A DNA stretch of 38,138 bases, taken from IMG/VR virus record IMGVR_UViG_3300042191_000039, positions 1 to 38,138 of that record, one strand, 5' to 3'. Within the stretch, counting starts at the first letter, position 1; each line of letters begins with the position of its first letter. The notes under the pieces were generated by a model, which saw nothing but the letters and a program-made list of their open reading frames with translations, was not told the DNA's origin and searched no databases. Of the stretch, positions 10,718-26,734 are shown piece by piece. A program made the position numbers and the translations under genes. This DNA comes from a virus (taxonomy: Duplodnaviria > Caudoviricetes).

Positions 10718-10723
10718 TCCTGG

Positions 10724-10776
10724 GCCGGGGCGGTGGACAGAGCCGCCCCGGCACCCTCTCTGTCAGGAGCAAGTGA
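10724..10776 (+). promoter_or_regulatory. GC hairpin whose loop pairs with the sequence abutting the SD of the tail chaperone
   Basis: Stem 10724-10733/10743-10752; gacagag at 10736-10742 is complementary to ctctgtc at 10758-10764; AGGAG at 10765. Confidence 0.55.
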
Positions 10777-11349
10777 ATGACAATCGAGATGCGCAACGGA
10801 CAGACGCCCACCGATATGCTCATGCGGCACGGTATCCCGCTGATGTTCGGGACCGAGACCTACCGCGTCCGTCCGCGGACCATGAACCGCGACAAGGAAT
10901 GGCTGAGCGTCGTCTTTCAGCGCGTGTTCGGCAAGGCATCGCTGCTCGACGACCCCAACCCGATCCCGGCCATCATCGCGGCGCTCGGCGATTCGACCGA
11001 CGACATGCTCGACATGATCGTGGCCTACGAAGACAACGACGAGGGCCTGTCGCGTCAGCTTCCCCCAAGGGAATGGTTCGAGTCCAACGCCTACACCCAG
11101 CAGATCACGACCGCCTTCACAACGCTCCTGGAGGTGGCGCACCCCCCTTTCGCGGTGAGCCGGAGGCTCCTGCCGGCGGACAAGGCGGCGGCGATCATCG
11201 GGAACCTGATCGAGTGGGTCATGCGCGACTTCCTCAAGGTGATGGCCTCAACACCGCCCGAGCCTTCGCCCTCTGCCTCAGTACCTTCGGGTTCCGAACG
11301 CCCCAAGAGGTCGAGGAAGCCTGGACCAACGGTCAGTTTGAAGTCCTGA
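10777..11349 (+). CDS. Tail assembly chaperone (gpG-like)
   Basis: Follows the major tail gene; AGGAG RBS; overlapping -1 frame open to 11567. Confidence 0.75.
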   Translation: MTIEMRNGQTPTDMLMRHGIPLMFGTETYRVRPRTMNRDKEWLSVVFQRVFGKASLLDDPNPIPAIIAALGDSTDDMLDMIVAYEDNDEGLSRQLPPREWFESNAYTQQITTAFTTLLEVAHPPFAVSRRLLPADKAAAIIGNLIEWVMRDFLKVMASTPPEPSPSASVPSGSERPKRSRKPGPTVSLKS

Positions 11350-11567
11350 TGAATGCCGTCGTGGATCAACGCAAGCTGGAGTCCGAGGCGCTGGTGGCGA
11401 ACATTGCCACGGCCATCGGGATCAGCTTCTCACAGGAGGCGTTGACCGCGTGGCAGTCGTCACATGGCTCGTCCGGCCCCGACGCGGGCGCTGTGGCGGC
11501 CTACAAGGGCACCGTGGGCCGGATTGCATCGATGTTCCCCGGCGCGGTTCGAGTGAGGTCGAACTAG
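11145..11567 (+). CDS. Tail assembly chaperone -1 frameshift extension (gpGT-like)
   Basis: In-frame slippery heptamer C CCT TTC at 11145-11151; the -1 frame reads ...TPQEVEEAWTNGQFEVLMNAVV... to a stop at 11567. Confidence 0.6.
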   Translation, partial: PFRGEPEAPAGGQGGGDHREPDRVGHARLPQGDGLNTARAFALCLSTFGFRTPQEVEEAWTNGQFEVLMNAVVDQRKLESEALVANIATAIGISFSQEALTAWQSSHGSSGPDAGAVAAYKGTVGRIASMFPGAVRVRSN

Positions 11568-17394: not shown

Positions 17395-21118
<3,724 letters not shown>

Positions 21119-21212
21119 TCCTAATCACGATACGCTCAGTATCGCTGCGTGAGGGCGTTTGTGTCCGAGCTCGACCCGGCGATCATCGAGACATGGCGGA
21201 CTGTCGCGGCGC

Positions 21213-21641
21213 TCATCCGTTTGGCGCGCCTGATCGAGTCCGGGCTGTGGCCGCCTTCACCCGATCGCGGAGCATGTCGGCGACGACCTCCCCCAGAGGA
21301 CCAACGAAGGAATCTAGTCGTTCCACGAGAGCGTTGATCGCCTCCGTCTGGGCTGTGAGTGCAGCCACCAGCGCATCGGCCGGCTCCGTCGGTTCTATGA
21401 GGTCTGGGAGGTCGTCAGGGCTCTTGCCGAAGAAGCCGACGATGAACTCTTGTTCGGCGATCGTTGGTATGCGCGTTCCGATATCGAGGGCGCGGTAGGA
21501 CGCGCGGCTCTTTGGCCCGAACTGGAGACCAAAGCGCAGCTCCTCAAAGGCGCGCTGCTGGCTCCAGCCGCGGTCCTCGCGCATCCGTGTAAGGAACGAA
21601 GCCCATCGTCCCCGAGGCTTCGTTCGTGGCCGGTACGACAC
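21213..21641 (-). CDS. XRE-family HTH repressor (CI-like)
   Basis: LTRMREDRGWSQQRA..YRALDIGTRIP; divergent from the cro-like gene. GTG 21641 chosen from promoter spacing; ATG 21665 is an alternative. Confidence 0.75.
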   Translation of the reverse strand: MSYRPRTKPRGRWASFLTRMREDRGWSQQRAFEELRFGLQFGPKSRASYRALDIGTRIPTIAEQEFIVGFFGKSPDDLPDLIEPTEPADALVAALTAQTEAINALVERLDSFVGPLGEVVADMLRDRVKAATARTRSGAPNG

Positions 21642-21677
21642 GTAATCACTATGCGCGTCTGTCATGACAGTTGTCAA
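21642..21677 (-). promoter_or_regulatory. Leftward sigma70-type promoter for the repressor
   Basis: TTGACA-18 nt-CATAGT-6 nt-GTG; perfect palindrome ctgtcatgacag (21659-21670) in the spacer. Confidence 0.6.
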
Positions 21678-21716
21678 CGGGTCACGCACAAACGCGGTGA
21701 CACCTGACAAAACGAT

Positions 21717-21760
21717 GCGAACGGCTTGACATTCGTTATGCCGTTCGCTAAGTTTATCCC
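21717..21760 (+). promoter_or_regulatory. Rightward early promoter with overlapping inverted repeat (operator candidate)
   Basis: TTGACA(21726)-17 nt-TAAGTT(21749)-6 nt-ATG; gcgaacggc 21717-21725 and gccgttcgc 21740-21748. Confidence 0.75.
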
Positions 21761-21958
21761 ATGCCAATCACAGGACGCGATCTCCGGGTTGAGCGAAGGC
21801 TCGCCGATGTCACCGTTGTCGATGTAGCCGCACGAATGGGCCTCTCCCGCCAGGCACTCTGGGCGATGGAGCGGTCCGCAGTCGTCAAGCCCGAGCGGGC
21901 TGCCGCCTACCGCGAGGCCCTCCGAGCCGTCATCGAGACGGCAGCGAGTGCCGCGTGA
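21761..21958 (+). CDS. Cro-like XRE HTH protein
   Basis: LRVERRLADVTVVDVAARMGLSRQALWAMER; 65 aa. Confidence 0.85.
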   Translation: MPITGRDLRVERRLADVTVVDVAARMGLSRQALWAMERSAVVKPERAAAYREALRAVIETAASAA

Positions 21959-23630: not shown

Positions 23631-23746
23631 ACGACCCCTACCACTTCAGCGTGCGCGAGTACGTCATCGCCGGCGTCGCCGCCGTCATCGCCGCGCCTGT
23701 TCTGTGGCTAGTGCTGGTGGTTTTCCTGACGGCGCTGCAGCCATGA
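23627..23746 (+). CDS. 39-aa single-TM membrane protein (not in the ORF track)
   Basis: MNDPYHFSVREYVIAGVAAVIAAPVLWLVLVVFLTALQP; ATGA overlaps at both ends. Confidence 0.6.
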   Translation: MNDPYHFSVREYVIAGVAAVIAAPVLWLVLVVFLTALQP

Positions 23747-24003
23747 ACCACTTCATCCGGGTCGACGACTCCGGCCGCCACCAACCATTCAGGCTTGTCA
23801 ACGGCCGCTATTCCCTCGATGTCGGGCCGTCATTCGCCACGCCGCGCGAAGCCATGGCCTACACCGACGCCCTCAATGCCCCGGCCACGCGGCCGTCAGT
23901 CGATGACCTTGCACGGGATCTGGGGAACGTCCCGGATCGCAGGGACGCTCGACTGACGCCCGGGTCGCCGGAGTCCGCAAACCCCCTGCGTCACCGGGGC
24001 TGA
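23743..24003 (+). CDS. Hypothetical protein
   Basis: MNHFIRVDD...; ATGA coupling. Confidence 0.55.
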   Translation: MNHFIRVDDSGRHQPFRLVNGRYSLDVGPSFATPREAMAYTDALNAPATRPSVDDLARDLGNVPDRRDARLTPGSPESANPLRHRG

Positions 24004-24009
24004 CCCATT

Positions 24010-24081
24010 CGGCCCTCGCGTCGCGCCTGAACGGCGCGGGGGCCGCATTCAGGCATTCAGGCGAGATAGGAGTTCAGGCAC
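24010..24081 (+). promoter_or_regulatory. Hairpin plus three loop-complementary repeats around the RBS (element A)
   Basis: 14-bp stem, loop cgcctgaa; ttcaggc at 24048, 24056 and 24073. Confidence 0.65.
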
Positions 24082-24390
24082 ATGAGCGAGATCGAACGTA
24101 GGGTGACCGTCGATATCCACACGGACGATAAGACGGGCATGTACGAAACGACGCCGCGGGGGCGAGCTTCACGAACCTTCCCGCCCGCGGCCACCCCGCG
24201 AGAGATCGGTCTGTGGGTCGCACGGACAGCGGTTTCTCAGGTTAGAGACGCCCAGAGTTCCTACCCGCTGCCCACCGTCGAAGCCGCGGCCGCGCCGATT
24301 GATTTGGCCGCGGTCATTGCCAAGCCCGCCGATCAAGTGACGGCAGCCGAGAGCGAGGCTTTCGACTCGACTGACGACATCCCGTTCTAA
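24082..24390 (+). CDS. Hypothetical protein with SSB-like acidic tail (DDIPF)
   Basis: AGGAG RBS; ends FDSTDDIPF. Confidence 0.7.
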   Translation: MSEIERRVTVDIHTDDKTGMYETTPRGRASRTFPPAATPREIGLWVARTAVSQVRDAQSSYPLPTVEAAAAPIDLAAVIAKPADQVTAAESEAFDSTDDIPF

Positions 24391-24397
24391 CCCCCTA

Positions 24398-24468
24398 CCC
24401 GGCGGCGGCTGCCCGTGTCGTCGCCGGGGTTCGTACTCAACGGGCAACGGGCAATAGGAGAACGGGCA
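24398..24468 (+). promoter_or_regulatory. Hairpin plus three loop-complementary repeats around the RBS (element B)
   Basis: 12-bp stem, loop tgcccgt; acgggca at 24440, 24447 and 24462. Confidence 0.65.
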
Positions 24469-24678
24469 ATGAGGTTCGTATTCACAGTCGAGGTCGAGTT
24501 GGACAGGGACGCTGGGCCGTTCGCGTCCAAGGACGAGCTAGCCGACGAACTGATTGAGGCCATCGAAGGCGCCGATCCCAGTCAGGTCGATATCGACGAG
24601 TCCAGCTACAGCGTCAGTGACTGGTCCGTCTCCCGTGACACCGAGGCCGAGAAGCCACGGAAGCGGGTTCCCGCATGA
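24469..24678 (+). CDS. Small acidic hypothetical protein
   Basis: AGGAG RBS, ATG at 24469; MRFVFTVEVELDRDAGPFASKDEL. Confidence 0.7.
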   Translation: MRFVFTVEVELDRDAGPFASKDELADELIEAIEGADPSQVDIDESSYSVSDWSVSRDTEAEKPRKRVPA

Positions 24679-25393: not shown

Positions 25394-25593
25394 CCGTGAT
25401 CCGTCGCAACGCCGTGACGTGGGTCGCCTACAAGGACGGCCTCGCCCACGCCCGGCGCGGACTCGCGCCGCGGACGCTGTGCGGCGCCGTGCCGACCCCC
25501 GACCGCTACGCCTGGCCGATCCGCGAGATGTGCGGAGTCTGTCGGGCACTCGAGGCGGGGCTCAAGGCTGAACGTCGAACTGGTGCTGCCTGA
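25390..25593 (+). CDS. Small zinc-binding protein (H..TLCG..CxxC)
   Basis: AHARR..RTLCG..MCGVC; same motif at 35724-35915. Confidence 0.55.
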   Translation: MTVIRRNAVTWVAYKDGLAHARRGLAPRTLCGAVPTPDRYAWPIREMCGVCRALEAGLKAERRTGAA

Positions 25594-26234
25594 TGCCGCC
25601 ATTGACGCCACGCAACAGGGAAATCCGCGCCGAAAATGTGACCGCCTCCGAGGTCGGCGCGCTGCTCGCGGAGCACCCGTACACCGATCCGGCTGGCATC
25701 TGGGACCGCCTGCTCAACCCGTTCGCGCCGACCGAAGCGCCGAGCGAGGCGATGGAAACCGGCAGTTTCATGGAGCCGGCGATCGCCGCCCTGGCTGCGC
25801 GCCGGCTGGATCTGCGGATCCGCGCTAACTCCAAGACCTACGTCCACCCCAAGGTTCGACTGTCGGCGACCCCCGACTACTTGGTCATCGCCCAACCACC
25901 GGGCCTGCTCGAGATCAAGATGTCCGGCCGCCCCGAGATGTGGCCCTATCGCGGCTCGATGCCTGCCCATGTCGAATGGCAGGTCCGGGCGCAGATGGCT
26001 TGTGCGCGGCGCTACACGGCGGCCGTGTGTGTCCTGGTCGGTGTGGGGCTCCGCACCTTCCTCATTGAACGTGAGCTCGACAAGGAGGCCGAGATGCTCG
26101 CGGCAGTCGAACGCTTCTGGGTTGACCACGTTGTCACCCGGATCAGGCCCGGCGCGAGTAGTCCGTGGCCGTCCATTCCGACATTCAGCTTTGAGGCTGA
26201 CCCGGCGATCCGGGAGAAAGAGGCAATCGCATGA
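25593..26234 (+). CDS. YqaJ / lambda-exonuclease family nuclease
   Basis: VTASEVGALL, AMETGSFMEP, LSATPDY, LLEIK, WQVRAQM. Confidence 0.9.
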   Translation: MPPLTPRNREIRAENVTASEVGALLAEHPYTDPAGIWDRLLNPFAPTEAPSEAMETGSFMEPAIAALAARRLDLRIRANSKTYVHPKVRLSATPDYLVIAQPPGLLEIKMSGRPEMWPYRGSMPAHVEWQVRAQMACARRYTAAVCVLVGVGLRTFLIERELDKEAEMLAAVERFWVDHVVTRIRPGASSPWPSIPTFSFEADPAIREKEAIA

Positions 26235-26734
26235 GCGACGAGTACGAGATCCCGGTCGGAGATACCGGCCACGAGACAGGCACCTTCCTGATGACACTGA
26301 CGGCGCTCAAGCCGTTCACCCTGTACGAGACGACGAAGGGCTGGACGCGGGAGAAGCCCGAGGACGGCAACGTCGTCGAGGCGTACAACAAGATCGAGTG
26401 GGTATTCGCCGACGAATATGGCGAGTACGGCAACGGCACCACGAGCACCGCCCGGAGCGAACGCTCGACGCTATTCGCCTGGGCCACAGGGCTCGGGATG
26501 CCCGCCCCGGTGGTGCTTGACCGAAGCAAGCCGATTCCGGCATCGCAGTTGGTCGGGCGCGAGGCGATGGTCACGTTTGCGGCCGACAAGAACGGCTACA
26601 GTCGGATCACGAGCGTCGTGCCGGCCCCGAAGGCACGGGTCGCAGCGCCGGCAGCACAGCCGGGTGAGTTCAGCGGAGCGCCTGCAACTCCAGCAATGAC
26701 CGCACCGGGCGCCAGCAACGACCTTCCCTTCTAG
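26231..26734 (+). CDS. Putative ssDNA-binding/annealing protein
   Basis: Follows the exonuclease; beta-rich core, QLVGREAMVT, Ala/Pro linker, SNDLPF tail. Confidence 0.6.
   Translation: MSDEYEIPVGDTGHETGTFLMTLTALKPFTLYETTKGWTREKPEDGNVVEAYNKIEWVFADEYGEYGNGTTSTARSERSTLFAWATGLGMPAPVVLDRSKPIPASQLVGREAMVTFAADKNGYSRITSVVPAPKARVAAPAAQPGEFSGAPATPAMTAPGASNDLPF

Follow-up and report, generated by a model that had tools for sequence, protein, structure and literature searches.

The window, a whole virus contig record of 38,138 bases with 66% G+C, contains two leaders, A and B, in which the loop of a hairpin behind a stop codon is complementary to three short repeats grouped around the Shine-Dalgarno (SD) sequence of the next gene. 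Leaders of this type form a real and conserved RNA family that is not catalogued in Rfam, and their function, read here from sequence, would lie in the control of translation initiation. All coordinates that the sequence-only reading had given for A and B proved correct base for base. On the + strand, hairpin A (24010-24023/24032-24045) has a 14-bp stem with two G-U pairs and no mismatch, closed by the loop CGCCTGAA (24024-24031) and starting 6 nt behind the stop codon of the preceding ORF. Copy 1 of the complement, TTCAGGC (24048-24054), lies 2 nt 3' of the stem; copy 2 (24056-24063), an 8-nt complement, ends 4 nt 5' of the SD and is the strongest target (-12.1 versus -9.7 kcal/mol). ATAGGAG then begins at 24066, with the SD AGGAG at 24068-24072, and copy 3, again TTCAGGC (24073-24079), occupies the interval between the SD and ATG 24082, where pairing would constitute a blocking register. 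The A-headed ORF (24082-24390, + strand) encodes 102 amino acids ending in DDIPF.

Hairpin B (24398-24409/24417-24428, + strand) starts 7 nt behind its stop codon and has a 12-bp stem, likewise with two G-U pairs, and the loop TGCCCGT (24410-24416). Copies 1 and 2 of ACGGGCA follow in tandem (24440-24446 and 24447-24453), the second ending 2 nt before the SD; ATAGGAG begins at 24454, with AGGAG at 24456-24460, and copy 3 (24462-24468) fills the interval up to ATG 24469, again as a potential blocking register. The linker GTTCGT and copy 1 (24429-24446) are predicted to form a small hairpin, as in B types generally, and a similar one is predicted in the G002 family. The three registers of B are equal in calculated energy, at -11.6 kcal/mol each. 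The B-headed ORF (24469-24678, + strand; 69 amino acids) is the first gene of an overlapping chain. The initial description of A and B as unrelated in sequence was too strong, since TTCAGGC and AACGGGC in register are identical at four of seven positions, with a common C-GGC core; the two loop/repeat codes do not cross-match within the genome.

The design of A and B is not explained by chance. When both strands of the window were scanned with back-reference, requiring a perfect stem of at least 8 bp and at least two complementary copies of at least 6 nt, A and B were the only sites returned. At a strict setting (stem of at least 10 bp, three copies of a 7-mer), no site appeared in 300 order-4 Markov genomes simulated to keep the window's 5-mer composition, compared to two in the window, and a looser setting (two copies of a 6-mer, stem of at least 8 bp) gave 0.175 sites per simulated strand. 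Elsewhere in the window there are three further copies of TTCAGGC and five of ACGGGCA, none of them 3' of an SD; one of the three TTCAGGC copies lies upstream of A at 23788, a single occurrence that cannot be told from chance, and no ACGGGCA target occurs upstream near B.

Seven related contigs or lineages carry the same design. Between them they have four loop sequences, their stems are compensated and the genes that follow are unrelated; the loop and the repeats change together across lineages, bearing out for the wider family the covariation first noticed between A and B. Exact-loop scans of viral contigs, with 37 and 30 matches, yielded the full design in L011 (A type) and L045 (B type) and a two-copy form in L046/L062; a B-pattern match in L063 abuts its gene and was left uncounted. 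In a metagenome scan in which loop and repeats were each free to take eight forms, 108 matches were obtained. Of those with a perfect stem of at least 10 bp, 7/8 showed agreement of the two upstream copies with the loop as well as a third copy following AGGAG; in matches lacking such a stem, these two features occurred in 2/100 and 0/100, respectively. The seven full-design matches represent three lineages, namely G001, L141 and five G002-like sequences. An approach blind to the motif, in which 17 loci were fetched by recombinase alignment and then scanned by back-reference, gave four more elements of the multi-copy kind whose loops were new: L345 (loop GTGCCCAG, two copies, one on each side of the SD), L348 (three short copies, all 5' of the SD), and L358 and L360 (two copies around the SD, with one compensated pair distinguishing the two elements). 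Multi-copy elements, including A and B, make up 6 of 77 sites with the order stop, hairpin, SD and start, compared to a mean of 0.2 and a maximum of 2 in 500 loop-swap trials over the same sites and to 0, 1 and 0 for three wrong orientations. In 16 of the 17 tabulated elements a target lies within 5 nt of the 5' side of the SD or overlaps it.

Other routes added little. Single-protein scans of viral contigs returned no relatives, and an alignment scan returned one true locus (L107, on the same contig as L011) and three loci without the element. An SD-anchored scan gave 31 matches, two of them real and neither of these new, and a loose scan of about 9/64 parts of the collection gave 120 matches and no new element. 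Separately, L359:6743 has a loop similar to that of L358 and L360 with one adjacent target, and a group of viral contigs of 16-18 kb and 50-54% G+C (L349-L356, L361) with a common recombinase has many perfect intergenic hairpins before SD sites and no multi-copy element. The element, not recognised as a described one in the sequence-only reading, also had no counterpart in Rfam, where nothing reached gathering score in the window or in G001-G004 and ranking by E-value gave weak unrelated matches only. The element sequence had no DNA match in the databases searched, and we did not find the design described in the portion of the open-access literature covered, which included passages from a paper on 224 motifs (PMC5737381).

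Several features place the element on the mRNA (+) strand, as originally proposed. The G-U pairs of stems A and B exist on the + strand only, both hairpins are present in the minimum free energy (MFE) fold of that strand, and most stems of the family contain G-U pairs and show compensatory changes. Among three A-type elements, four stem pairs are changed on both sides, 98% of cells are paired and the loop is invariant, a comparison of three sequences that is weak when taken alone. Substitutions in the repeat core of G001 copy 2 and L345 copy 1 are C-to-T changes opposite a loop G, so that a G-U pair is kept. These observations bear on the idea that the sites act as DNA, either as direct and inverted operator sites or as microhomologies left by gene-cassette exchange. 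The element does mark exchange points, as in the relative described below, and operators are plausible in L358 and L360, where an extended -10 box stands between the hairpin and the repeats. One-strand G-U pairs, compensated stems and wobble-preserving repeat changes nevertheless argue for RNA, the inverted copy is always centred in a loop, at variable distance, and no internal promoters were found at A/B-type sites, so that we consider a DNA-level explanation improbable. Transcripts from the -10 boxes of L358 and L360 would be without the loop, and these two are treated separately as a possible promoter-bypass or operator subtype.

The position of the leaders in the genome is equally distinctive. 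The gene order runs from terminase, portal, capsid and tail genes through a divergent gene facing a small HTH gene to an HNH nuclease, followed by small ORFs, a YqaJ recombinase (25593-26234), an SSB-like gene (26231-26734, with the C-terminal end NDLPF) and a primase. In this early operon, 14 of 17 junctions overlap by 1 or 4 bases, and the exceptions are a 24-nt gap and two 78-nt gaps, the latter being A and B. Because they occupy both long gaps of an otherwise overlapping chain, A and B represent fresh SD-led starts, and the chain beginning at the B-headed gene extends through the recombinase to the SSB-like gene. No integrase was present among the 50 ORFs scanned in the window, capsid relatives in GTDB are only 39-47% identical, and the recombinase is 28% identical to those of cultured phages. 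Temperate-looking phages need to time their recombination and replication genes, and here a protein-free leader of 78 nt stands at a fresh translation start before just such a chain and travels as a cassette. Further upstream, the divergent gene (21213-21767) and the HTH gene (21761-21958) have sigma-70-like promoters placed back to back between them (window 21640-21760), and a hairpin covers one -35 box; a 51-nt stretch (window 21085-21134) is 92% identical to G001 (L100:1533-1582), beside a terminator-like hairpin (21053-21072) between convergent-side genes.

The genes behind the elements are unrelated, mostly small proteins without assigned function; the product of that in L114 resembles, by its motifs, a phage adenine methylase. 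The A-headed ORF is missing from the equivalent site in one relative and its protein had no usable atlas match. A soil contig matches window 23962-24006 exactly; 30 differing letters follow, with a B-type arm and loop among them, before the match to the window resumes at 24422, and the genes beyond are different ones. As this single contig joins 24006 to 24422, A together with its gene looks inserted before B. A third code follows a homologous ORF tail in L345, which is closely related and has its genes in the same order. Homologous upstream ORF tails thus precede an A-type element in the window, a B-type element in the soil contig and a third type in L345, with repeats that always match the loop, and from these sequence comparisons each element appears as a portable leader built on a GC-rich hairpin.

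The ORF upstream of A (23743-24003, + strand; 86 amino acids) has a folded-looking N-terminal half and a variable C-terminal tail, and matched no Pfam or PHROG family. The segment encoding this tail is predicted to form a long irregular hairpin (23881-23971, + strand) ending in GGGTCGCCGG, which is invariant in the alignment of the window, L345 and L011, and this long structured tail is part of element A. Compared to shuffled sequences, the 150 nt 5' of the stem fold strongly in window A (z = -3.3), L345 (z = -3.9), L141, L045 and L348 (range -3.2 to -4.5) and moderately in L136 (z = -1.7) and L128 (z = -2.1); the equivalent stretch of window B is not structured (z = -0.95). A candidate alternative stem, noticed by eye and not part of the MFE structure, pairs GGGTCG (23962-67) with TGACCC (24001-06) on the + strand and would hide the upstream stop codon; both arms are invariant in 3/3 aligned loci, which gives no covariation support.

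A link to termination of the upstream ORF, suspected from the window, extends to the family. Among tabulated elements, 2-9 nt separate the stop codon from the stem, and the frame leading to that stop is maintained through N-terminal swaps and indels, those of +3 and +12 keeping the frame to the same stop. Hairpins in intergenic regions often start directly 3' of stop codons, and since such hairpins are common, the spacing alone proves little. The spacing also resembles that of recoding signals, and both window gaps measure exactly 78 nt with B open in frame, as might be expected of a readthrough or frameshift stimulator fusing two ORFs. Homologous gaps, on the other hand, measure 74, 76, 77, 78, 81 and 82 nt and fall in all frames, the frame varies between near-identical elements, and two in-frame stops occur in A, which leaves this explanation hardly credible.

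The sequence-only reading described the leaders as multi-register pseudoknots. Complementarity between loop and repeats is borne out, and the three registers in A are not supported in the form proposed. A-form geometry, roughly estimated, calls for a linker of ~5 nt or ~3 opened pairs, and with only 2 nt separating it from the stem, copy 1 of A could pair only after opening or refolding of the stem base. At this distance it probably could not form a pseudoknot on the closed stem, even though it is perfect, 2 nt 3' of a 13-14 bp stem, in three distant phages. If 3-6 nt at the start of the 5' arm of window A are kept unpaired, the loop, the 3' arm and copy 1 are predicted to refold into one hairpin, so that copy 1 is a probable partner in a refolded hairpin rather than in a pseudoknot. 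More generally, with 3-8 nt of the 5' arm blocked, most multi-copy elements are predicted to flip from the hairpin to a loop:repeat helix. In these nested models, which leave pseudoknots out, blocking 6 nt in the ten elements with a copy behind the SD shifts pairing to an upstream copy in three (window A, L141, L122) and to the blocking copy in five (window B, G001, L200, L358, L360), with one mixed and one remaining closed. The models thereby predict opposite signs for A and B.

With one loop, mutually exclusive partners and one of these partners between the SD and the start codon, a switch of initiation in cis is the simplest reading. The loop would hold one repeat at a time. In nascent RNA the upstream repeats would emerge first and capture it, leaving the SD and start codon free (ON), and with time the loop would settle on the copy located between SD and ATG (OFF). 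When a ribosome terminates on the upstream ORF, 3-8 nt before the stem, it may then force the base of the stem apart and thereby reset folding, in which case the downstream gene and the overlapping chain would be translated mainly during translation of the upstream gene. We think it likely that the leaders control initiation in cis in one way or another; the version with ribosome reset and positive coupling is put forward tentatively, somewhat short of being probable. Counting against a cis switch, the predicted direction is inconsistent among elements, L348 has all copies before the SD and thus no blocking register, copy 3 is weakened in 4/5 G002-family sequences, G001 has ATC at the expected start position, and window B is without a structured tail. 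Reset in particular is called into question by frameshift signals, at which a ribosome halted 6-8 nt before a stem may abut it unopened. If switching does occur, the leaders would represent a compact natural multi-state RNA device with orthogonal variants, comprising at least four codes, two of them in one genome.

The near-equal energies of the registers, and a balance that varies between phages, would also fit a fixed rheostat or timer that needs no outside trigger. The loop would then distribute among registers, and the number and strength of upstream decoys relative to the blocking copy would set the initiation rate or allow one burst per mRNA. Copy numbers of two to three and unrelated downstream genes are in line with such an arrangement. 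It offers no reason, though, for a perfect copy 1 of A in three distant phages despite its probable failure to reach the loop, and it leaves the conservation of the upstream tail frame unexplained, so that we regard it as unlikely.

The targets outnumber what one loop can fill in cis, which raises the possibility that the hairpin acts in trans. Excised with its structured tail, or left as a stable 3' end, the hairpin would accumulate and its loop would occupy unpaired repeats on further mRNA molecules and so shut their ribosome-binding sites, as feedback or immunity. The early-operon position before replication genes, the structured 150 nt upstream of window A, L141, L045, L345 and L348, and the lack of cross-matching between the A and B codes all agree with this. 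However, the 600 nt preceding each of A, B, L345 and L348 showed no sigma-70-like promoter, no further targets are apparent, window B is without the structured tail, and loops are conserved rather than diversified between distant phages, making a trans-acting RNA rather unlikely. Doubtful as well is a joint reading, a counting switch, in which the element's own loop, parked on an upstream decoy repeat, keeps the gene on for as long as spare hairpins are scarce. Such hairpins could be supplied by transcripts that were processed or terminated, or by a prophage already resident; once accumulated, they would occupy the repeat that separates the SD from the start codon, and the whole overlapping replication chain would be shut down. 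If this reading is true, the codes would be orthogonal channels, stacked and swapped by phages as cassettes, and the leader would constitute an RNA-only timer or immunity determinant of a new kind.

The closest parallels for action in trans are P1/P7 c4 and P4 CI RNA (PMC5320573, PMC4825925). Like these, the leaders stand in a phage early operon ahead of replication genes and have several short targets on their own transcript, one of them at the ribosome-binding site, with loop and targets co-varying between phages. However, c4 consists of three stems with two loops, is processed by RNase P and acts in trans (PMC5320573), and CI RNA pairs with up- and downstream sites, also in trans (PMC4825925), whereas A/B-type leaders have a single loop 2-34 nt from all targets. 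The Rfam C4 model had no gathering-score match in the window or G001-G004, and none at E <= 10 or 5. In OppZ and CarZ, too, the RNA follows a stop codon and matches a translation start of its own operon, but they are described as RNase E-processed chromosomal sRNAs acting in trans, while the targets of A and B are adjacent (PMC7398697).

For the preferred cis switch, the closest functional relative appears to be the pseudoknot of ColIb-P9 repZ, although the leaders are not members of that family. In the IncI-alpha plasmid ColIb-P9, and also in IncB and IncL/M rep leaders, a loop pairs directly before the SD, and the trigger proposed is a ribosome located at an upstream stop codon (PMC4705826). 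The A/B-type loop similarly complements bases just 5' of the SD in 16/17 elements. There are several differences from repZ: its leader stop lies downstream of the loop, inside the inhibitory structure, whereas the A/B-type stop precedes the hairpin; it has a single target in place of two or three with one between SD and start; its SD is weak and buried and its start GUG, compared to AGGAG and ATG in A and B; and it heads a plasmid replication initiator gene, whereas A/B-type leaders head small unrelated phage genes. A competing antisense RNA acts on repZ. For A or B, a scan limited to the promoter consensus found no sigma-70-like antisense promoter.

A protein operator, in which a phage or host protein binds the pseudoknot or the repeats, would find its precedent in the T4 gene 32 leader, where a pseudoknot before the start codon is likewise joined to short repeats (PMC3014915). 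The T4 repeats described there are unpaired, A+U-rich protein sites of a self-regulating gene; those of A/B-type leaders are GC-rich, complementary to the loop and placed before unrelated genes, which leaves no room for self-regulation, and they change along with the loop, as a protein site would not need to. This explanation is quite improbable in our view. One point in its favour is the acidic end of the A-headed protein: DDIPF (24376-24390) resembles the C-terminal tail of SSB, and from its sequence the protein is possibly an SSB-tail mimic. In STAXI (RF01728), too, pseudoknot pairing occurs repeatedly, close to the DNA-handling genes that mobile elements carry (PMC2864571), but STAXI repeats the whole pseudoknot, whereas A/B-type leaders repeat the target alone, around the SD, and have no Rfam match.

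A stricter scan revealed a third element in the window, with a single target (10722-10769, + strand), located behind the major tail gene and ahead of the presumed tail chaperone gene. Its stem (10722-10733/10743-10754) closes the loop TGGACAGAG, and the target CTCTGTC (10758-10764, + strand) abuts AGGAG at 10765-10769. Counterparts with other loop sequences occur at L346:1241, L347:1671 and in L062, the last with two copies and a B-type loop in a phage of 58% G+C. As a class, single-target sites show a modest excess, five against about 1.8 expected by chance, and because the excess is only modest the case for the third element rests on its shared position. The single-target form behind a major tail gene suggests that pairing between a loop and a translation start behind stop codons is a general and under-described way for phages of setting gene ratios. 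In the region behind the third element (window 10777-11567), a tape-measure-like gene is preceded by two overlapping frames, which fits what is expected of a tail chaperone frameshift.

Further arrangements were noted in the related genomes. A+T-rich sequence at L103:18600 and L106:4541 (G003 and G004) contains GTGACAG as three direct repeats and once in inverted orientation, probably as replication-origin iterons. In G001 (L100:13562-13630), an 18-bp hairpin with the loop CTAGGCC has its sole complement between GGAG and ATG, within a small hairpin that hides the SD. At L347:9519, a hairpin in the early-operon position has a loop, CTCCACTGG, that pairs imperfectly with the SD region itself.
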